Part shown: positions 1,270 through 10,913 of the stretch, piece after piece
Layout: each line of letters starts with the position of its first letter
How positions within the stretch are numbered: position 1 is the stretch's first letter
NCBI GenBank assembly: GCA_036679605.1
Contig: JAZDCZ010000325.1
Span: forward strand, 1 to 10,914
From: Gemmatimonadota bacterium
GTDB taxonomy: Bacteria > Gemmatimonadota > Gemmatimonadetes > Gemmatimonadales > GWC2-71-9
Length of the DNA: 10,914 bases
Reading direction: 5' to 3'
Notes under the pieces: generated by a model
Databases searched by the model: none
What the model was told of the DNA's origin: nothing
The model's input: the letters and a program-made list of their open reading frames with translations, nothing else
Translations under genes and position numbers: made by a program

Positions 1270-3360
1270 TTGGTGAGGCAACCAGTGCGCTTCTCTACTA
1301 CCACACCGAAGACGAGACCGAGTCTTACCGCTACCATTGCCGTGGCCGTGTCGATCGAAGCGTTTCTGGTAATTGGCAAGGCGTTATGGCTTGCTTCGTC
1401 TCTCGGCGTCGGACGCCCGCGTCGTTTCGCTCCGGGTTGGTTTGCAAGGCTGGCCGCCGAGGTTCTACCGCTACCTGTTTGGCTGCGAGCATGGGTTTCT
1501 TCGTGGACGGAGAATCCCAGCGATCTAAGCTGGCCGCCGGCAGTTGCGATGTTCGCTGCCGAGACGCTGCTGGCGGGTATGGCCTTCGGTCTTGTCCTCG
1601 CCGCGGGGACGAGGGTCGCACTCTTGCTTGCCGCTCGCCGGCGTTCGTTGTTGCGAGGGCCGAGGGCCTCCTACGTTGCGGTTTTGGCGACACTGACCGC
1701 CTTGCCGGCTTTCGAGTTCACGGCCTCAATCTACTGGGCCCTGGTCATGGGCGCTGTGGGAAAAGGCTGGCCTTCGGCAACAGCGACATTGGTAAGTCTG
1801 GGCACTACGGTTCCGCTTTGGGGGTTGTTCTTCTTCGTTTCCGGAAGTGTGGTCGCCAGGATGTCGGCAACCCTCAGGCGAAGCTGCACTGGCGTCGTCT
1901 TTGCTGCAGCCCTTGTTGCGATATGCCTGATGGCAGCACCGGTTCTCGAACAGAGAGGACGCCGAGGGGGCGCGCCGGCGTCTACGGACGACGAGGCGCC
2001 GCTAGGAGTTTTGCTCATCTCCATCGATACATTACGTGCCGATCACTTGGGTTGTTACGGATACGAGCGTGAGACCAGTCCGACGCTCGATGGCATTGCT
2101 GCTGAAGGTGTCAGATTTCGCGACATGGTAGCAGCGTCCTCATGGACGCTGCCGACCCATCTCAGCATGTTGACCAGCTTACCTCCCGTGGCTCACGGCG
2201 TCACTCGGGCGGAAAGGGGACGCCTCAATTCCAATATCGTCACACTCGCCGAGGTCTTCCGCGATGCCGGCTATCAGACGGCGGCTTTCGTCGTTTCTGG
2301 ATACATGGATGCCGGATATGGGCACATCCAGGGATTTGAACACTACGACGATTACTCGGCTGTTGTCGCCTGTAAAACTATCTATTCGCGATGTGTTACC
2401 TCGCCGGATCTCATTCCGCAGATCCAGAAATTTTTCACCCGTTGGGATGCAGACGGTAGGCAACGTCCATTTTTTACGTTGGTTCATCTCATGGACGTAC
2501 ACAATGACTATAAACCTCCTCCGCCGTTCGATACGATGTTCGATGACGACTATCGGGGTTCGGTTTCTGGGACGGATCCGCGTTCACTTTTCGCGATGGA
2601 AGAACCCGTCAAGGCTCGCGACCTCGAACATATCGTTTCGCTTTATGACGGAGAAGTCCGCTTCGTCGACAGCTGGATAAAGCGCCTGTTCGATACGATG
2701 CGGAATCTTGGAATTCTCGATCGTACCGTTGTCGCTATTACCGCAGATCACGGCGAGGAGTTCTTGGAACACGGTGGCTGGAACCACAACCGGACGCTTT
2801 ACGATGAGGTTTTACGAGTCCCCCTGCTTCTGCGTTATCCGGCGCGATTGCCGGCTGGATTGGTAGTCGAGGAGACGGCGCAGCACATAGATTTGGCTCC
2901 AACGCTGCTGGCGCTGGCCGGCGTCGACCCGTCAATCGGTTTTGGCCGCGTCGAACCTGCTTCACAATATCCTGCGCGTGACCTTAACGGCGCCATCCTT
3001 CGCGCGCTCGAGAAGGGAGAGGAAGCCGACGCGGAAGTGTTCGCATCTTTGGCCGACACATCTCCCGTCGACACCTCATTTGCCGACCTTTACGGAACGA
3101 TGGTGTCGGTACGTTCGGGCCGTTTCAAGCTCATTCGCTCGCTGGATGGAAGCGTTGATGACCAACTCTACGACCTCAACACCGATCCCGGGGAACAACA
3201 TAACGTGACCGAAAGTTATGGTGACGGTATCCGTAAGATGCTGGCGGCCAAGATCGATCGCTGGAGAGAGCACTGGAAATCTCTAGGCTCTGACGCCGAA
3301 ACGATGAAGCTGAGCAGTGAGCAGCGCGAGCGTCTCAGGGCCCTAGGCTACCTGGACTGA
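1270..3360 (+). CDS. Membrane-anchored sulfatase-like / alkaline phosphatase superfamily protein (about 5 N-terminal TM helices, Thr-type active-site motif)
   Basis: 696-aa ORF. Hydrophobic N-terminal ~225 aa, then a sulfatase-fold domain: VLLISIDTLRADHLGCYGYERETSPTLD, SSWTLPTHLSMLTS, VHLMDVHNDY, YDGEVRFVD, ITADHGEEFLEHG, LYDEVLRVPLLL, HIDLAPTLLALAG, LYDLNTDPGEQHNV, ERLRALGYLD. The start is uncertain (TTG 1270 or GTG 1273, no clear SD). Confidence 0.88.
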   Translation: MVRQPVRFSTTTPKTRPSLTATIAVAVSIEAFLVIGKALWLASSLGVGRPRRFAPGWFARLAAEVLPLPVWLRAWVSSWTENPSDLSWPPAVAMFAAETLLAGMAFGLVLAAGTRVALLLAARRRSLLRGPRASYVAVLATLTALPAFEFTASIYWALVMGAVGKGWPSATATLVSLGTTVPLWGLFFFVSGSVVARMSATLRRSCTGVVFAAALVAICLMAAPVLEQRGRRGGAPASTDDEAPLGVLLISIDTLRADHLGCYGYERETSPTLDGIAAEGVRFRDMVAASSWTLPTHLSMLTSLPPVAHGVTRAERGRLNSNIVTLAEVFRDAGYQTAAFVVSGYMDAGYGHIQGFEHYDDYSAVVACKTIYSRCVTSPDLIPQIQKFFTRWDADGRQRPFFTLVHLMDVHNDYKPPPPFDTMFDDDYRGSVSGTDPRSLFAMEEPVKARDLEHIVSLYDGEVRFVDSWIKRLFDTMRNLGILDRTVVAITADHGEEFLEHGGWNHNRTLYDEVLRVPLLLRYPARLPAGLVVEETAQHIDLAPTLLALAGVDPSIGFGRVEPASQYPARDLNGAILRALEKGEEADAEVFASLADTSPVDTSFADLYGTMVSVRSGRFKLIRSLDGSVDDQLYDLNTDPGEQHNVTESYGDGIRKMLAAKIDRWREHWKSLGSDAETMKLSSEQRERLRALGYLD

Positions 3361-3412: not shown

Positions 3413-4879
3413 TTAACCGCCGTTGCCGATACGGGGGCTCGTCTCTTGCCCTGTCGACGACGCTGTTCGTAGGGCGGCAAGAAGGGTTCGGGCGTGATCG
3501 ATGAGCGCTCGGTCAACCAGAAGCGCACAGAATCCGTACACGACAAGTGCGATGAGGCCGCGCAACATGGGATCGTCGGTTATCAGCAAGGCCGACGCAC
3601 AAGAGAAAGCGGCGACGAGTAAAGGTCGTACGAACGGGCCGAAAAACGGCAAGGGGCGCACCCTACGTACAGTGAAAAAGTGGGCGACCAACCACACGAC
3701 GAGGGATGCTATCAGCATGGTTGCCGCTGCCCCCGACGCGCCGAAGATGAGAATCGCCGGCCAACCTACGACGACGGTCGCGAGGGCACCGGCAGACTGC
3801 GCGGCAAGTACGAAGCCTTGTCGGTCGGCGGCTATCAAGACCCAGCGCGCATGCCCCGATACGACATGCACGGGCACGGTCCACAGCATCAACTGCAGGG
3901 GAATAGTGGCAGCGGCGAACTCGTTGCCGTAGAGCGTGGTGCAGAATATTCCGGCCAGTAGTCCTCCGATTGTTGCTAATCCAATCCCTCCCCAGGCCAC
4001 GATACGAAACGAAGGCCGAACAAGGGCATCAAAATTGTCCTCACTGCCGGTCTGCATGCGCCTGACCACTGCCGGGAACAAGTTGAAATGATAGAGCCAG
4101 CCGAGTGCGAACAGCGAAAGAACAACTCGATGCGCAGCGCCGTACAATCCGACTGCGTACGTGCCGAGATAGACGGCGAGTATAAGGGTGGGCACGTACT
4201 GTGTTAGAGCCCACACAATCTGGCTCAGCCCGAGCCACCATCCGCGCGCGAATATTCGTCCGACCCCACGTGCTCGTATCCGTATGCGAAACCCGTGGGT
4301 CAGACGCACTCGGGCGACAACGAAAAACAGCGCCAGCAGGGTCGCCGCAGCGACCTCCGCCCGACCGACAGCTACAAGGTCATCGGTGGAGTGCACCATT
4401 AGAAATAATCCGACTACAAAAACCGTGGTTCTCAGAAACTGGCCGAAGGCCACGATCGGCATGCGTTCGAGGCCTTGGAACAGCCACCGATAGGTGGCCG
4501 GCAGAGCTAGGATGGCCAGTGCATAGAGCCGTACTAACTGCTCGCCACTCGGGTCGTCGGCGAAGAACCGGCCCATCCATCCCATGAGAGGCACGGCGAT
4601 ACAGGCGAGGATCGCTCGGGTCAGGAAAATATCGGAGACGAGATCATCAGCGTTCTCGGGCTTGATGGCGATGTCGCGTGCGCCGATCGCACCCGTGCCC
4701 ATCTCGACGGCAATCGTGAAGAACATCGATAGAGCCGTCGCGATTTCTACTGCGCCGTACCCGGCCGGGGCCAGCGTCCGTGCCAGGTATGCGAAACCGA
4801 TGAAGGACACCAGTCGCCCTAGGGCCTCTCCGCCCGACAGCGCTACGAAGTTGCGGATGATACGGGTCGATTGACTCAC
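3413..4879 (-). CDS. wzx: Wzx-like oligosaccharide/polysaccharide flippase (PST/MOP superfamily)
   Basis: 488 aa, hydrophobic throughout with many TM segments. Characteristic N-terminus IIRNFVALSGGEALGRLVSFIGFAYLARTLAPAGYG, plus WLFQGLERM and VGLYGAAHRVV. The GTG start at 4879 overlaps the upstream GT4 TGA stop (GTGA), suggesting translational coupling. Confidence 0.88.
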   Translation of the reverse strand: MSQSTRIIRNFVALSGGEALGRLVSFIGFAYLARTLAPAGYGAVEIATALSMFFTIAVEMGTGAIGARDIAIKPENADDLVSDIFLTRAILACIAVPLMGWMGRFFADDPSGEQLVRLYALAILALPATYRWLFQGLERMPIVAFGQFLRTTVFVVGLFLMVHSTDDLVAVGRAEVAAATLLALFFVVARVRLTHGFRIRIRARGVGRIFARGWWLGLSQIVWALTQYVPTLILAVYLGTYAVGLYGAAHRVVLSLFALGWLYHFNLFPAVVRRMQTGSEDNFDALVRPSFRIVAWGGIGLATIGGLLAGIFCTTLYGNEFAAATIPLQLMLWTVPVHVVSGHARWVLIAADRQGFVLAAQSAGALATVVVGWPAILIFGASGAAATMLIASLVVWLVAHFFTVRRVRPLPFFGPFVRPLLVAAFSCASALLITDDPMLRGLIALVVYGFCALLVDRALIDHARTLLAALRTASSTGQETSPRIGNGG

Positions 4880-6126
4880 GCTGTCTGCAACTCATCCACA
4901 ACCCGCATGCGGCCGCGTCGCCGCGCGATGGAGAGGATCAACTCGAAATACCGGTCGAGTACGACCGACTCGGTCCAGCGAGTTGCGAATACCTTACGCC
5001 CGGCTCGTGCATGCTCGTCGCGTAGATCTGAATCGAGGGTCATCGTGCGAATCGCATGGGCAAATTCATCGTGGTTTTCGAATAGGATTCCACCTCCGGC
5101 TTCGAGCAGTTCCGGCAGGGGACCGAGCCGCCGGGCAATCACCGGTAGCCGATCGCGGAACGCTTCGAGCAACACCATAGGAAATACTTCGTAACACATC
5201 GACGGCAACACTAGTGCTCGAGCGCCGGAATACAGGGAGCGCAATCGTTTCTCGCTAACCTGACCAAGGAACTTGACCTTGGGCAAAGAGTGGGCCTGTC
5301 GGCGAAGTTCGCTTTCCATCGAGCCCGTACCGGCCACCCAAAGTTCAGCGCCGGCATCGGCCCCGAAGTGTGGCATTACATCATGCAATCCTTTGAGCCG
5401 CTCCAGGCGGCCCGCGAACAAGAAGTAGGGGGGCGCGTTTGACGCTACACTCTCGGCATCGGTGGGCATAGGAGTATCAGGAAGAAAGTTGGGAAGAATT
5501 TCGAAATCACGCATGAAGCCCAAGCGTCGATGTTGAGCGGCCGTGAAACGGCTCGGTGCGATAAATTGGTCGACGGCACCCGTGGCGTTCTCTATCATAT
5601 GTGTCGACCGCCACAGTTGTGGTGGTCGGCGATAGTGCAATACGCAACGCAAGCACTGGCGTTCGGTACAAAGCTCACGGTCGTGACGCCAGAGAACGTG
5701 CGTCGGACAGACCAGCCAGTGCTCGTGCGTCGTGTACAACTTGAGTGCATTCCCGTAGCGAAGAATAGCGGGGCCGCCGATCAGCGAAATGTTGTGATAA
5801 TGCACGACGTCGAAACGGCGGGTGGCGAAGATGTCGCGAATAGCGCGTCCGTGCACCAGGGGACGCCCGAGTTGCTGGGTTGCCAAACAGGACAAAGCTC
5901 CCATGCGGCTTCTCATCGGATGTACGGTGACCCCGTTGGGTTCCCGACCCGGAGCGGGTTCGGGTATACTGGACAGAGTGCGATGTGCATCGGCGTCGTG
6001 GATCACGTCGACCTCGTGGCCGCGACGGGCCAGTGCGTGGCTGAGCCGCTGGACCAAAGTCGCATCGCCCCCGAAGTGGTAAGGGGGGTAGAATGTGGTC
6101 ACCATGGCAAATCGCAGAGCGCTCAA
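4876..6126 (-). CDS. Glycosyltransferase family 4 (GT-B fold), about 416 aa
   Basis: N-terminal LRFAMVTTFYPPYHFGG, FDVVHYHN, FIAPSRF, YFLFAGRLERLKG, LWVAGTG, VKFLGQV and the E-x7-E motif EVFPMVLLEA, followed by PVIARRLGPLPEL. I moved the start from the ORF-track 6246 to TTG at 6126: it has an AGGAGG SD 5 nt upstream, matches the usual GT4 N-terminus, and avoids overlapping the deacetylase gene. Confidence 0.9.
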   Translation of the reverse strand: MSALRFAMVTTFYPPYHFGGDATLVQRLSHALARRGHEVDVIHDADAHRTLSSIPEPAPGREPNGVTVHPMRSRMGALSCLATQQLGRPLVHGRAIRDIFATRRFDVVHYHNISLIGGPAILRYGNALKLYTTHEHWLVCPTHVLWRHDRELCTERQCLRCVLHYRRPPQLWRSTHMIENATGAVDQFIAPSRFTAAQHRRLGFMRDFEILPNFLPDTPMPTDAESVASNAPPYFLFAGRLERLKGLHDVMPHFGADAGAELWVAGTGSMESELRRQAHSLPKVKFLGQVSEKRLRSLYSGARALVLPSMCYEVFPMVLLEAFRDRLPVIARRLGPLPELLEAGGGILFENHDEFAHAIRTMTLDSDLRDEHARAGRKVFATRWTESVVLDRYFELILSIARRRGRMRVVDELQTA

Positions 6127-6131
6127 TAGAT

Positions 6132-6137
6132 CCTCCT
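6132..6137 (-). promoter_or_regulatory. Shine-Dalgarno (AGGAGG) for the GT4 gene
   Basis: The + strand CCTCCT at 6132-6137 reads AGGAGG on the - strand, 5 nt before TTG at 6126. Confidence 0.7.
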
Positions 6138-6138
6138 C

Positions 6139-6864
6139 ATGAGGGCCATCCTTACATTCCACAGCATAGACTCTTCCGGCTCCGTTATGTCGGTATCGGC
6201 CGAAGCTTTGCGCAGGCTCATTCGTGCAATCCGCGCCGGCGGCCACCGTGTAGTCGACCTCTATTCACTTCTCGCCGACCCCCGGGAGCCTGACCGTATC
6301 GCTATCACTTTTGATGACGGTCTGCGGTCGGTCCATCGCCAGGCGTTATCTATTCTACGCGAAGAGAATGTGCCTGCTACTCTTTTGCTGACGACGGGCC
6401 ATGTAGGCGGGGATAGTCGTTGGCGAAGCCTACCCGAGGACGGCCCTGTATTTCCCATGTTAAATTGGTCCGAAATCGAGGATTTGCATGCAGCGGGGTG
6501 GAGTATCCAGGCGCACACCGTTCGCCATCCGCACTTGCCCTCTCTGAGCCCTGACGAGATCGAAGCGGAGTTCACTGAATCGAATGACATCATCGAAGCC
6601 AGGCTCGGACGGCGTCCGGTAGTCATGGCCTATCCCTACGGCAGTGTCGACGACACAGCGGCCGAAATCGCCTCGCGTTGTTACGAATTTTCGCTCACTA
6701 CGCGGATGGGGCTCTTGCCCGACGTAATCCGTGACAGGCAGAAGGTGCCGCGTCTCGACGTCTACTACTTCCGTTCCGAGAAGATTCATTGCCATTTTGG
6801 GACGGCGCGGTTTCGCACTTATCTCGCAATACGCATGTTTTTGCGTAAACTGCGCGGGCAATAG
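6139..6864 (+). CDS. Polysaccharide deacetylase, carbohydrate esterase family 4 (NodB homology, PgaB/IcaB-like arrangement)
   Basis: 241 aa with AILTFHSID, IAITFDDG (motif 1), PATLLLTTG, MLNWSEIEDL, IQAHTVRHPHL (metal-binding H-x3-H) and MAYPYG. No obvious signal peptide. Confidence 0.92.
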   Translation: MRAILTFHSIDSSGSVMSVSAEALRRLIRAIRAGGHRVVDLYSLLADPREPDRIAITFDDGLRSVHRQALSILREENVPATLLLTTGHVGGDSRWRSLPEDGPVFPMLNWSEIEDLHAAGWSIQAHTVRHPHLPSLSPDEIEAEFTESNDIIEARLGRRPVVMAYPYGSVDDTAAEIASRCYEFSLTTRMGLLPDVIRDRQKVPRLDVYYFRSEKIHCHFGTARFRTYLAIRMFLRKLRGQ

Positions 6865-6902
6865 TTCGACCGATGCTATCAGTATAACGCCCTGAGAAGC
6901 CG

Positions 6903-9650
6903 TTGAAGATTATCGAACTCAGCGAGAAGGCTGCAAGCGAGGCCTTCGATGAGATCGCCGGAGCTTCGGTCGAGCTTTCGACGATTCTCGATGAGTCGGG
7001 ACGGTATGGCGATGCGAGAGCGGTGAAGTGGGTTGTGCCGGTTACGTCGGGGACGGTGCATCGGATCGAGGGCCTTTGCCTATTGGCCGAGGAGGCCGGG
7101 TACGGTCTAAAATTTGACGTATCGCCCGATCTTACTGAGCGCGAGCGGGCTTTCTTCGATGATATTTTGGGAGCCCGCGCGGACATGGTCACGTCAAAAC
7201 TCGCTCGATTGAATGCGCAGATAAATGCACAATTGCACGAGTACCTGTCGTTTGCGGGCGAGTGTCTGAGGTTTTCGGTACGTATGGGTTTCGCGGCTAT
7301 GAGCAGGCGCCCTGTTCAAGCCGCCCCGTTTCGGAACATCGCCCTGGTCGGCGTCTATGGTTTCGAGCATGTTGGCGATATGGGGATCCTCGGCGGGGTC
7401 CTCCTGCGCATCCATCAGCGCTTCGGCGTGAAAGAAGCACAGCTTTTTAGCTATCGGCCCGATTACACCAGGCGGTTGGCTGCGGGTCTGGACACTCCGG
7501 TTTCTCTCCAGGTGCATTCGATCGAGCCGGCTCTTGCAAAGCGTATTCTAAGGAACGCCGATGCTGTTGTTTGGGCCGGTGGGCCTCTCATGGACCTACC
7601 GCGAGTTCTCATTCGCAATTTGTCGGCGGTGTATTTGATGAAACGGCTCGGCCGTCCATTCCTTCTTGAAGGGATCGGCGTGGGCCCCTTTCGGCGTTCG
7701 TTGAGTCGTTGGGCCGCGCGTCGGATCGTCAGTTCGGCTCAGCACATATCGGTGCGAACCCAAGGCGCAGCCGCGGATCCCGTCCTCGATGGAGTCAATG
7801 TCGATATAGGCCGCGACCCTGCGTTCGATTACCTGGAAACACGCCGGCGCGAACTCAGTCGGCTGAACCCCCGCGAAGCCGAATCGGTGCAAGCCCTTCT
7901 TCGCGGCACCGATGATAGACTGTGTATCGGTCTCAATATACGCAAAATTCGACATTTCTACCGTCAGCAGAGTCCATCTGATTGCGCGTCCATGGAGCGA
8001 CGCTTCATGGATCAGCTCGCCGACGGGCTGACCCGTTTCGCCCACGAATCCTCGAGGCCTGTGTCCTATATCTTCTTCCCGATGAACCTTATTCAGGTAG
8101 GAATGTCGGATCTTGGGGCGGCGTTCAGCCTTCGCCGACACTTGGGTAGCAAAGTCGACCTGCGGATTTGGCAGGCCGATCCCGACGTGGATGACGTGGT
8201 GTTTCTTCTGCGCCGACTGCATATGGCGGTGACGATGCGTTTTCACGCAAGCATTTTTGCACTTTCTCAGGACCTACCGACAATTGGTATCGACTACCAA
8301 GCCGGCGGTAAGGTAGAAAACTTGTTCCAGGATCTCGGTCGGCCGCAGGACGTGTGTAGGATGGAGAGCCTTGATGCGTCCTGGCTTTACAACACCACGG
8401 TACGGGGAGATATTGTGAACGTCGGACATGATCGGATCTTGGCAGGCGAAGTCGTTTTGCTCCGTGGTGCGATGCAACGACACGGAGTATTCGGCGGCAT
8501 GTTGTCTGCCAGTCTCGCGGGCGTTACCAGGGTAGTCGGCAGCGATGTGGCGGATCGCATCGAGAAGGCGGGCATCGAACACATCCACGATCTAGTGCCT
8601 GCGAACCGACTTCCCGGGCTCACGGATGCCGTATACGATGAAATCACGCGTATAGCTCCGGGCATGTTGTCCGAACTAGTGCCGTCGATCTTCCGAGATG
8701 CGCGCAACTTGTATTTCGAGCGTTGTCCGAACGTGCGGTTTCTGATCCCGCACGAGATCACGGTGAAGAATCGACACGATTACGCGGAGTTCATCCGTGC
8801 GCGTGGCGAGGGCAAGATCACGCCACACGGTCCTCACCGAGATAGTTGGCTCGACTGTCCTGCGAACTCGATCAACTTGTGGATTGCTATCGGGCCGGTG
8901 CGTTCGGGTAACGGACTCAGCATCTACGAAAGCGTGTACGGGAGAGAATTCGCGTTTCAGCCGAACGGTGAGCTTCGCCATGGAGAGAATCCCGGACCGG
9001 CATCTAACTACGATATGGATCCGGGCGACATCCTGATTTTCCACGGCGACCATGTCCACGGCTCTGAACTCAATCGCACCGACGAAACCAGACACGTCGT
9101 GAGTTTTCGAATCACCATGGGTCGCCCGACGTTCCCTCGCGATCACCATCATAACTATGTCTCGGATAGGATGAGCAGGGGGCCGTTCAAGGCGTTGGCG
9201 GAGATTCCAGCGCAGCTGCAATGGAGTCGCCTTCGTTATGTAGCCTCGCGGGTCGTCGACAAACTCACGGGTGGAATGCTCGCTCGCGCGGCCCGGGACA
9301 AAGCGGATCCGAAGTCCGGGATAGAGACGGCGGGAGATAATACGAGCTTTGTTGCCGACCGCGATCTCCCCCGGGGCCGCCTGCTTGCTCTTTCCAGCAA
9401 GGTCTGTGTGGCAAGAATGCAGGATGGCAGAGTTCTAGCGTTTGCGCGTCGTTGTCCTCATGAGGGTGGCGATCTCGCCGACGGTAGCATCCGAGACGGA
9501 CAGATTCTTTGCCCTTGGCATAACCTCGCGTTCGATCCGGTAACGGGGGCCACTTCCTGCTCGGCTTTCAGGAACCTGCGTACCTATGCCATCGAGCGCG
9601 AAGGTGAGGGCTGGCGACTATCTGCGGCCACCGGCGAGGGGGCGTCGTAG
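6903..9650 (+). CDS. Multidomain protein: unknown N-terminal ~140 aa + polysaccharide pyruvyltransferase (CsaB/WcaK-like) + PhyH-like Fe(II)/2OG dioxygenase + Rieske [2Fe-2S] domain
   Basis: Uninterrupted 915-codon ORF. Pyruvyltransferase motifs: IALVGVYGFEHVGDMGILGG, ADAVVWAGGPLMD, GIGVGPF, ISVRT, DPAF, IGLNIR, VTMRFHASIFAL, IDYQAGGKVENLF. Dioxygenase motifs: PHRDSW (H645-x-D647), INLWIAI, NGLSIY, MDPGDILIFHGDHVHGSELNRTDETRHVVSFR (distal H719). Rieske motif: C851-P-H-x16-C870-P-W-H. The TTG start at 6903 is uncertain. Confidence 0.85.
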   Translation: MKIIELSEKAASEAFDEIAGASVELSTILDESGRYGDARAVKWVVPVTSGTVHRIEGLCLLAEEAGYGLKFDVSPDLTERERAFFDDILGARADMVTSKLARLNAQINAQLHEYLSFAGECLRFSVRMGFAAMSRRPVQAAPFRNIALVGVYGFEHVGDMGILGGVLLRIHQRFGVKEAQLFSYRPDYTRRLAAGLDTPVSLQVHSIEPALAKRILRNADAVVWAGGPLMDLPRVLIRNLSAVYLMKRLGRPFLLEGIGVGPFRRSLSRWAARRIVSSAQHISVRTQGAAADPVLDGVNVDIGRDPAFDYLETRRRELSRLNPREAESVQALLRGTDDRLCIGLNIRKIRHFYRQQSPSDCASMERRFMDQLADGLTRFAHESSRPVSYIFFPMNLIQVGMSDLGAAFSLRRHLGSKVDLRIWQADPDVDDVVFLLRRLHMAVTMRFHASIFALSQDLPTIGIDYQAGGKVENLFQDLGRPQDVCRMESLDASWLYNTTVRGDIVNVGHDRILAGEVVLLRGAMQRHGVFGGMLSASLAGVTRVVGSDVADRIEKAGIEHIHDLVPANRLPGLTDAVYDEITRIAPGMLSELVPSIFRDARNLYFERCPNVRFLIPHEITVKNRHDYAEFIRARGEGKITPHGPHRDSWLDCPANSINLWIAIGPVRSGNGLSIYESVYGREFAFQPNGELRHGENPGPASNYDMDPGDILIFHGDHVHGSELNRTDETRHVVSFRITMGRPTFPRDHHHNYVSDRMSRGPFKALAEIPAQLQWSRLRYVASRVVDKLTGGMLARAARDKADPKSGIETAGDNTSFVADRDLPRGRLLALSSKVCVARMQDGRVLAFARRCPHEGGDLADGSIRDGQILCPWHNLAFDPVTGATSCSAFRNLRTYAIEREGEGWRLSAATGEGAS

Positions 9651-9704
9651 GCAGATCAACTAGGCGGATTCCGATCCTGCCGGCGGGCGCGTGAGCTGTC
9701 TGGG

Positions 9705-10913
9705 TCAGTAGCGGTAGCTGTCCGTCTTGTACGGTCCTTCGATCGGTACGTCGATATAATCGGCTTGCTCTTGGGTCAGGGTCGTGAGTTTGACGCCGAG
9801 CTTGTCGAGGTGGAGACGCGCAACTTTCTCGTCGAGGTGTTTGGGCAGAACGTACACCTTCTTCTCGTAGCGATCGAGATGCTGTGCCAACTCGATTTGC
9901 GCGAGTGTTTGGTTGGTAAAACTGTTCGACATCACGAAGCTCGGGTGGCCGGTGGCGCAGCCGAGATTGAGCAATCGTCCTTCGGCGAGAATGAGCACGC
10001 TGTGGCCGTCCGGGTGCACCGATGTGCCGGGGGCGAAGGTAAACTTGTCGTACTGAGGTTTGATGTTCGTATGTACGACCTTGCCCTTGGCGATGAGTTT
10101 TTGCAGGTTGGCCATGTCGATTTCGTTGTCGAAGTGTCCAATGTTGCCGACGATCGCGCCGTCTTTCATCCTCGTCATGTGGTCGGCAGTTATGATGTTG
10201 AAGTTGCCGGTGGTGGTAATGTAGAAATCGGCGTAGTCGAGAACGTCATCCAGGGTGAGGACTTGGAATCCTTCCATCGACGCCTGTAGAGCGCAGATAG
10301 GGTCGATCTCGGTGATGACGACGCGCGCGCCCTGGCCACGCAATGACTGAGCGCAGCCTTTCCCTACGTCGCCGTAGCCGCAGACGACGGTGACCTTACC
10401 CGACATCATCACGTCGGTGGCGCGGTTGAGTCCGTCGATCAGCGAGTGGCGACAACCGTAGAGGTTGTCGAATTTACTCTTGGTGACCGAGTCGTTTACG
10501 TTGATAGCCGCGAACAACAGCGTGCCTTCCTTCTCCATCTTGGCAAGCGCCTTGACGCCGGTAGTGGTTTCCTCGGTGACGCCGCGTACTCGTTCGGCTA
10601 CTTTGTGCCAACGTTGGGGTTCTGTCTTGAAGCACTCGGCTAGTTTTTTTAATACCTCTTTGAACTCTACGTTGTCGGTGGTCTCGGGGCCGGGCACCGC
10701 TCCTGTGTTCTCGAACTCATAACCTTTGTGGATGAGTAAAGTCGCATCTCCTCCGTCGTCTACGATCTGATCGGGGCCCGTGCCGCTGCCGAAGTCCAGA
10801 GCACGCTCGGTACACCACCAGTACTCTTGGAGGGTTTCGCCTTTCCAGGCGAAAACAGGAATGCCTGCCGGATTATCGGCGGTGCCGGTCGGTCCCACTG
10901 CTATGGCTGCGGC
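9705..10913 (-). CDS. ahcY: Adenosylhomocysteinase (S-adenosyl-L-homocysteine hydrolase); 5'-truncated by the window
   Basis: The frame is open to the window end ([27 protein letters not shown]). Diagnostic motifs: [106 protein letters not shown], and C-terminal [10 protein letters not shown]. Confidence 0.98.

Follow-up and report, generated by a model that had tools for sequence, protein, structure and literature searches.

An apparent pyruvyltransferase–PhyH–Rieske fusion in a Gemmatimonadota contig that is probably two overlapping genes

Among described proteins, the closest to the locus reported here are the ketal pyruvyltransferases CsaB, WcfO, WbbZ and Pvg1p, the PhyH-family Fe(II)/2-oxoglutarate (2OG) oxygenases PAHX, PtlH, MysH, EctD, SnoN/SnoK and AndA, and the Rieske-type ferredoxins of ring-hydroxylating dioxygenases. 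CMAH, NamH, KdoO and LpxO modify sugars or glycolipids in O2-dependent reactions; the first two join a Rieske domain to a catalytic domain outside the 2OG class, and the last two lack a Rieske domain. The locus occupies positions 6903–9650 on the forward strand of a 10,914-nucleotide stretch of DNA from a Gemmatimonadota bacterium (assembly GCA_036679605.1, contig JAZDCZ010000325.1). This stretch was analysed as a whole, is referred to below as the window and is the complete contig C252 of its assembly. Pyruvyltransferase, PhyH and Rieske domains follow one another there in one reading frame. In all probability the frame is made of two overlapping genes, one for a WcaK/CsaB-like polysaccharide pyruvyltransferase (gene 1) and one for an oxygenase with a Rieske domain (gene 2), joined by a 10-base deletion.

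The junction and its reading frames

The stop-free frame at 6903–9650 (+) encodes 915 residues and is a single open frame in the window. A Pfam scan returned PS_pyruv_trans (PF04230) at residues 179–466 (56.6 bits, cut-off 25.3), PhyH at residues 633–732 (29 bits, cut-off 22) and Rieske at residues 829–885 (43.4 bits, cut-off 20.3). The first-pass annotation, made from the letters of the window, had described these three domains in one stop-free frame, and this description was confirmed together with its iron triad (H645-x-D647 at 8835–8843, H719 at 9057), its distal strand (R730-x-x-x-S734-F-R736 at 9090–9110) and its Rieske motif (C851-x-H853...C870-x-x-H873 at 9453–9521). That the organism itself has the frame as a single gene was not confirmed: the 10-base deletion is specific to this assembly.

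Logan contigs of eight public runs were compared with the window. Ten extra bases behind 8386 were present in all three runs that reach the junction (8386/8387, +), which come from two studies. The X1 contig (3,171 bases) spans 6573–9733 with two differing letters and the ten bases inserted; the X2 contig (1,057 bases, depth 5.0) has the same insertion, and the X7 contig from the second study (depth 3.1) ends in the same ten letters. Runs X3, X4, X5, X6 and X8 stop short of the junction. The extra bases lie within the interval 8380–8415, where the first-pass annotation had considered a frameshift or misassembly, and their loss puts gene 1 in frame with gene 2.

Counting the ten missing bases, gene 1 (6903–8431, +) encodes 512 residues. 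Its last 14 codons were translated in the shifted frame at 8387–8428 and are followed by a TGA stop at 8429–8431. Read by hand, the restored end is W-L-V-Q-R-L, the family pattern being W-L-x-x-x-L. Leu stands five residues past this Trp in 41 of 46 homologs and Phe, Met or Ile in the other five; the assembled window reads Thr at this place. Once restored, the tail after the Trp is 18 residues long, against a median of 19 in the 46 homologs. Gene 2 (8415–9650, +) encodes 411 residues from a GTG start at 8415, with a Shine–Dalgarno-like GGGGAG (8404–8409) five bases ahead of it (whole feature 8404–8417, +). From this start ten residues precede the conserved Gly, against a homolog median of 24.

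A whole-protein search of 7,999 candidates of 503–1602 residues gave 18 matches: the window's own protein, 15 stand-alone transferases (504–707 residues) and two Rieske-only proteins, with no fused relative besides the window's own. A profile search of proteins of 878–2505 residues, rated as weak evidence, returned only the window's own protein. The C-terminal 411 residues retrieved 220 homologs among 8,000 candidates of 226–720 residues; the best 120 of the 220 measure 356–501 residues (median 426) and carry the Rieske motif without exception. Both halves were found in one frame in none of 111 related loci (43 genome, 68 metagenome), and the 915-residue protein is on record with one member from one contig. 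Two candidate fusions were rejected. The 768-residue transferase of locus L105 is the long N-terminal form described below, and the frame of 926 codons in genome G001 that matches Rieske (L002, G001:C3:51863-55177) belongs to an unrelated protein, which we take to carry apparent CDGSH iron–sulfur motifs, a Rieske domain and a pyruvate-oxidase-like thiamine pyrophosphate (TPP) domain.

Since all three runs reaching the junction have the ten bases, the homolog C-termini agree with the restored end and these searches gave no fused relative, the fusion is taken to be private to this assembly, whether through an assembler error or a rare allele. The organism's layout is, with high confidence, a 512-residue gene overlapping a 411-residue gene by 17 bases, and the triple fusion is not a genuine, conserved trait of the locus. 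The bifunctional triple-fusion enzyme proposed in the first-pass annotation is not supported here, the close relatives of both halves being separate proteins.

Some irregularities of these assemblies were also recorded. The window differs from the X1 contig by two synonymous A/G changes at 8099 and 8102, about 290 bases before the deletion. Its letter at 8099 is absent from X1, X2, X3 and X5, and the assembly may therefore have followed a minor haplotype there. One X3 contig joins 6864 to 9705 and leaves out 2,840 bases, both genes included; the shorter side of the joint measures just 30 letters, and the joint is possibly an empty site, or noise. The oxygenase or the transferase is split across frames in L053, L057, L099, L123 and G048:C22:118266-119816; with several homologous loci split in this way, insertions and deletions are no rarity in assembled copies of these genes.

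The two products compared with described enzymes

Gene 1 is like CsaB, WcfO, WbbZ and Pvg1p in its PF04230 score, its GT-B fold, its x-G-D, Arg and R-x-H motifs and its location in a Wzx cluster. It is unlike them in having H-x-G-D, usually no Ser or Thr four residues after the Arg, an extra N-terminal domain of 140 residues, and a tie to an oxygenase gene. From CsaB it differs further in scoring 92.9 bits against the CsaB equivalog model TIGR03609, below the cut-off of 213.1. An AlphaFold2 (AF2) model of gene 1 with a predicted local distance difference test (pLDDT) score of 92 has the GT-B fold. Its fold matches include Pvg1p [Z 15.8, root-mean-square deviation (rmsd) 4.0, 249 aligned] and WbbZ (6x1l; Z 13.6, rmsd 3.9, 224 aligned), and Foldseek listed only other GT-B proteins. 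The part of PMC10629545 consulted gives NxGD, RxxxS/T and H as pyruvyltransferase motifs, with an Asp and two Arg residues tied to acceptor and phosphoenolpyruvate (PEP) binding. G158-D159, R285, R446 and H448 of gene 1 are invariant in 47 sequences and R-x-H is kept. Gene 1 may catalyse PEP-dependent ketal transfer.

The N-terminal domain of about 140 residues (6903–7322, +) is conserved, belongs to no Pfam family and is longer in some homologs (about 250–385 residues). Its short and long forms matched each other in a profile–profile comparison with a probability of 99%; no usable match was found in the Atlas. An origin as a radical-SAM remnant was rejected, as hhalign against seven neighbouring radical SAM proteins gave probabilities of 0.1–0.2%.

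Gene 2 is likely to encode a PhyH-type Fe(II)/2OG oxygenase (residues 1–270) with a C-terminal Rieske [2Fe–2S] ferredoxin domain (residues 309–409), as judged from homologs, the AF2 model and fold matches. Residues H141, D143, H215, S217 and R226 in gene-2 numbering are H645, D647, H719, S721 and R730 of the 915-residue frame. Conservation and alignment with PAHX were used to predict the Fe ligands (H645, D647 and H719) and the 2OG-binding residues (S721 and R730), which together with the distal R736 span 8835–9110 (+). In an alignment of 121 rows, H645, D647, R730, S734, R736 and the four Rieske ligands (C851, H853, C870 and H873; 9453–9521, +) are invariant, H719 is present in 120 rows and S721 in 119. 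In a wider set of 131 sequences, H141, D143, H215, R108 and R226 (gene-2 numbering) are present in all and R736 in 130. H215-x-S217 and R226 align with the H-x-S and Arg of human PAHX (chain 2a1x), in which the Ser and Arg past the distal His bind 2OG. The AF2 model has a pLDDT of 93.7 and a predicted template-modelling (pTM) score of 0.92. Residues 1–270 match PtlH (Z 16.0, rmsd 3.8, 224 aligned), MysH (Z 14.0), PAHX (Z 13.9, rmsd 3.7, 208 aligned), SnoK (Z 13.1) and AndA (Z 12.6), and residues 309–405 match the naphthalene dioxygenase ferredoxin (2qpz; Z 13.8, rmsd 2.2, 96 aligned). Turnover would be expected to depend on 2OG and O2.

With the PhyH-family oxygenases gene 2 shares the H-x-D...H triad and the fold (Z 12–16), and with PAHX the aligned H-x-S and distal Arg. 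It differs from the family in carrying a Rieske ferredoxin domain and in its low identity (10–20%), and no listed solved match covers both domains. The C-x-H...C-x-x-H ligands and the fold of its Rieske domain are those of the ferredoxins of ring-hydroxylating dioxygenases; these serve a separate Rieske oxygenase, whereas the domain in gene 2 is fused C-terminal to a 2OG-type domain. Nor is gene 2 a large subunit of a Rieske ring-hydroxylating oxygenase, which has an N-terminal Rieske domain and its own kind of catalytic domain. TIGR04324 (sporadic carbohydrate cluster 2OG-Fe(II) oxygenase), by name a glycan-cluster oxygenase, weakly matches 46 of 51 oxygenase-domain sequences; the window scores 18.4 bits over 34 residues against a cut-off of 150, and the 248-position model is too short for the Rieske domain. 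None of CMAH, NamH, KdoO and LpxO turned up in the family scans, in which no search was aimed at them, and profile A2 matched no PDB sequence at E 1. The family is broad, with 227 representatives at 50% identity reaching E 1e-30, and the Rieske motif is present in 87 of the 108 representatives with a whole oxygenase domain. Its three Atlas clusters (90, 372 and 80 members) have automatic PhyH or PhyH/Rieske names only.

Gene pairing and alternative readings

The pairing of transferase and oxygenase is real, and the two genes form an uncharacterised module of known enzyme kinds. A pyruvyltransferase lies within 10 kb of the oxygenase in 28 of 38 loci of at least 15 kb collapsed at 90% identity, and in 24 of 31 collapsed at 70%. 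Among 42 loci of at least 15 kb, 26 have the close transferase subfamily and five more a distant one; glycan genes occur in 35 of the 38 long loci. In 14 of the 111 loci transferase and oxygenase lie side by side on the same strand, in varying order, and in five of these they overlap by 4 bases. Whole genomes were searched for ten of the 11 long loci without a nearby transferase, and the subfamily was present elsewhere in eight of the ten, once in pieces. Loci in genome contigs were found with an alignment query; a single-protein scan of these contigs found none. Judged by record titles, hosts include Alphaproteobacteria, Gammaproteobacteria, Myxococcota, Acidobacteriota, Gemmatimonadales, Planctomycetota and cyanobacteria. 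Two overlapping background samples, 400 genomes of the assembly's class and 400 of its phylum, gave no match to either gene. Co-occurrence of the two halves, a check suggested in the first-pass annotation, was thus seen, together with Wzx, in glycan clusters across phyla; this supports the idea behind the original interpretation, and what falls is the single chain at this locus.

Genuine triple fusions do exist in a distant clade. Five of the best 150 representatives of the gene 2 family exceed 700 residues, and a Pfam scan covered 31 of the 150. P0196 and P0200 have PS_pyruv_trans, PhyH and Rieske in that order, P0192 has PS_pyruv_trans and PhyH (the latter just below cut-off), and P0274 has a glycosyltransferase domain ahead of the oxygenase. 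P0292 (779 residues; its cluster of seven includes NCBI records under the name Aliidongia sp.) can be aligned over the full length with P0196 and P0200 at 52–58% identity. A FastTree phylogeny of 131 oxygenase domains placed the triple fusions in a clade (support 1.0) that also holds unfused members, and the window's oxygenase, to which they are 32% identical, in a separate clade of stand-alone proteins (support 0.999). The transferase of the fused clade has the canonical N-I-G-D. The three-domain architecture of the first-pass annotation therefore stands as a conserved fusion of the same order in this distant clade and not at the locus itself; the distant fusions, with junctions taken as assembled, support functional coupling but do not validate the window's fusion. 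The fused clade and the cyanobacterial loci pair the oxygenase with other pyruvyltransferase subfamilies. In P0200 (residues 720–742) the first Rieske His is replaced by Asp, and its cluster may be altered or lost.

Ascorbate re-reduces stray Fe(III) of Fe/2OG enzymes in vitro, and the Rieske domain of gene 2 suggests a comparable role. From the observed genes, ligands and co-occurrence we infer a substrate, an order of steps and a use for the electrons. In the cytoplasm, gene 1 would take PEP as donor and place its pyruvate on a diol of a sugar carried by a lipid or a nucleotide. Gene 2, with Fe(II), 2OG and O2, would hydroxylate a C–H bond of that sugar or of its pyruvate ketal, the Rieske cluster would supply single electrons returning stray Fe(III) to Fe(II), and Wzx would flip the decorated unit. 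The first-pass annotation had likewise suggested hydroxylation of a repeat unit or nucleotide sugar, which may be what the oxygenase does. That both enzymes belong to one pathway is probable; the fuller reading, two overlapping genes read as one whose enzymes tailor the same surface-glycan precursor, is favoured somewhat less firmly. Plain hydroxylation with iron rescue is put at slightly under an even chance. A wider proposal is offered tentatively: the oxygenase–Rieske protein may be a self-reducing Fe/2OG enzyme with a tethered [2Fe–2S] cluster as physiological donor, and with the pyruvyltransferase may build an undescribed oxidised or epimerised pyruvate-ketal sugar on surface glycans in bacteria of several phyla.

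The deletion could instead be a real allele of one strain, encoding a working 915-residue trifunctional protein, a fusion caught at birth. Reading by hand found no flanking microhomology that would explain a slip, gene 1 would lose just its last 17 residues with both halves still in frame, the differences at 8099 and 8102 might mark another haplotype, and natural fusions of the same order exist. These last, however, are not orthologs, given their 32% identity and separate clade; the deletion is on one record only, is seen in none of the three runs reaching the junction and breaks the conserved last helix of the transferase. A real allele is accordingly judged improbable. For gene 2 the main competing reading is a radical enzyme like SnoN or AndA that epimerises or rearranges its substrate: it would abstract a sugar hydrogen and the radical would then be reduced, with the Rieske domain as built-in stoichiometric reductant. 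SnoN epimerises a sugar carbon, and the final radical of AndA is reduced by a biological reductant that is unknown according to the part of PMC12006828 consulted. Profile and fold searches with gene 2 matched SnoN, SnoK and AndA among others, three candidate hydrogen donors (W145, C148 and Y248, gene-2 numbering) are invariant in 121 close homologs, and 87 of 108 representatives keep the Rieske domain. Yet C148 is found in only 45 of 131 wider homologs, the hydroxylases PtlH, MysH and PAHX score as well as or above SnoN/AndA in the fold search, and the neighbour families scanned include no reductase partner; such chemistry is unlikely here, if less so than the other alternatives.

Two further readings concern the substrates. 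Gene 2 might act on a nucleotide sugar of a cytidine diphosphate (CDP)-glucose/C-methyltransferase branch, for example by oxidising a C-methyl group, and share only the cluster with the pyruvyltransferase. Genes for a glucose-1-phosphate cytidylyltransferase (TIGR02623, above cut-off) and a C-methyltransferase are each present in 15 of 38 long loci, but the pyruvyltransferase is commoner than either (28 of 38), and the window's own genome gave no match to them at E 1e-15. The pairing of the oxygenase with other pyruvyltransferase subfamilies in cyanobacterial loci and the fused clade also speaks against this branch, which we regard as rather improbable. Alternatively, gene 1 might transfer a non-PEP donor made or matured by gene 2, giving a non-pyruvate ketal; the His that replaces Asn in the NxGD motif and the extra N-terminal domain of the subfamily would fit. 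By motif, though, the Asp and both Arg residues tied to acceptor and PEP binding have invariant counterparts (D159, R285 and R446), and the distant fused clade has the canonical N-I-G-D. A non-PEP donor is very doubtful.

The preferred reading, two genes encoding a ketal pyruvyltransferase and a coupled oxygenase, has several observations weighing against it. All eight runs were compared as assembled contigs, which drop rare variants, so that a true minor deletion allele may have been lost; X1 may be the source sample, and the X7 contig stops ten letters past the junction and gives no bridge by the 31-letter rule. In the fold search with gene 1 a UDP-GlcNAc (uridine diphosphate N-acetylglucosamine) 2-epimerase (Z 16.0) ties with Pvg1p (Z 15.8). 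H-x-G-D replaces N-x-G-D in 47 of 47 transferases, and the published Ser/Thr four residues after the Arg is a Ser in just seven of the 47. The Rieske motif is missing from 21 of the 108 distant representatives, whether truncated proteins or not, and no ferredoxin reductase was found among the 36 neighbour-family representatives scanned. The transferase subfamily has no match in two of the ten genomes searched and is in pieces in a third, and the related loci are not independent samples.

No paper on the three-domain architecture or the cluster was found in the literature searched, which leaves out most subscription journals, and nothing relevant to a hydroxypyruvate acetal was found there; the parts of PMC8615578 and PMC6801904 consulted hold nothing on fusions. 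The comparison removes a false architecture, a 915-residue `fusion' in the public record that other assemblies of the same DNA contradict. The cellular reductant of radical-reducing Fe/2OG enzymes can be unknown, as stated for AndA in the consulted part of PMC12006828, and with a conserved family that has a built-in Rieske cluster one can ask directly whether a ferredoxin-type donor feeds electrons to a 2OG iron site. The regular presence of a pyruvyltransferase beside this family suggests a surface-glycan decoration that has yet to be reported. Cultured hosts of homologs are Parvularcula lutaonensis, Ruegeria meonggei and Sphingomonas daechungensis.

Neighbouring genes and assembly setting

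A polysaccharide deacetylase gene (NodB-like; 6139–6864, +; PF01522) lies 38 bases upstream of gene 1 and is present in 17 of the 111 related loci. On the opposite strand are a GT4 glycosyltransferase (4876–6246, −; PF00534/PF13439; homology from near 6117), with orthologs in 22 of the 111, and a Wzx-type flippase (3413–4879, −; PF01943), with orthologs in 35. The window also contains the end of a type II dimethyl sulfoxide (DMSO)-reductase-family alpha subunit (3–929) and a sulfatase with a long hydrophobic N-terminal region (1270–3360); a sulfatase occurs in only one of the 111 loci and arylsulfotransferases in eight. Promoter and terminator scans were at chance level (one against 1.6 expected and three against 3.8, respectively).

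Recurrent neighbours in the 38 long loci are a flavin adenine dinucleotide (FAD) oxidoreductase of PRK07208 type (25), Wzx (18), DUF6798 (16), GT4 (15), glucose-1-phosphate cytidylyltransferase (15), C-methyltransferase (15), a PMT_2 GT-C-like protein (14), deacetylase (10) and a CmoA-like protein (7). Gene order is strongly shuffled among related loci. In L018:2555-5687, L018:12655-13365 and similar loci the clusters share a recurring module: genes for a glucose-1-phosphate cytidylyltransferase, an FAD oxidoreductase, a C-methyltransferase, an epimerase and a GT2, accompanied by DUF6798, a radical SAM/SPASM gene and a CmoA-like protein that scores below cut-off. One partial match was found in 72,556 plasmid records.

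The cytidylyltransferase, C-methyltransferase and DUF6798 had no match in the window's own assembly at E 1e-15. The FAD oxidoreductase and PMT_2-like genes of the cluster are found there on the small contigs G000:C379 (2,290 bases) and C222 (2,219 bases). The assembly measures 6.7 Mb, against about 2–4.6 Mb for listed kin, with a contamination of 6.3%, and C252 is a tetranucleotide outlier in it. A second ahcY on a 181-kb contig (G000:C91:32424-33602) is 67% identical to the ahcY of the window (9705–10913). The window's contig may come from a co-binned organism, or the cluster may have been acquired recently.

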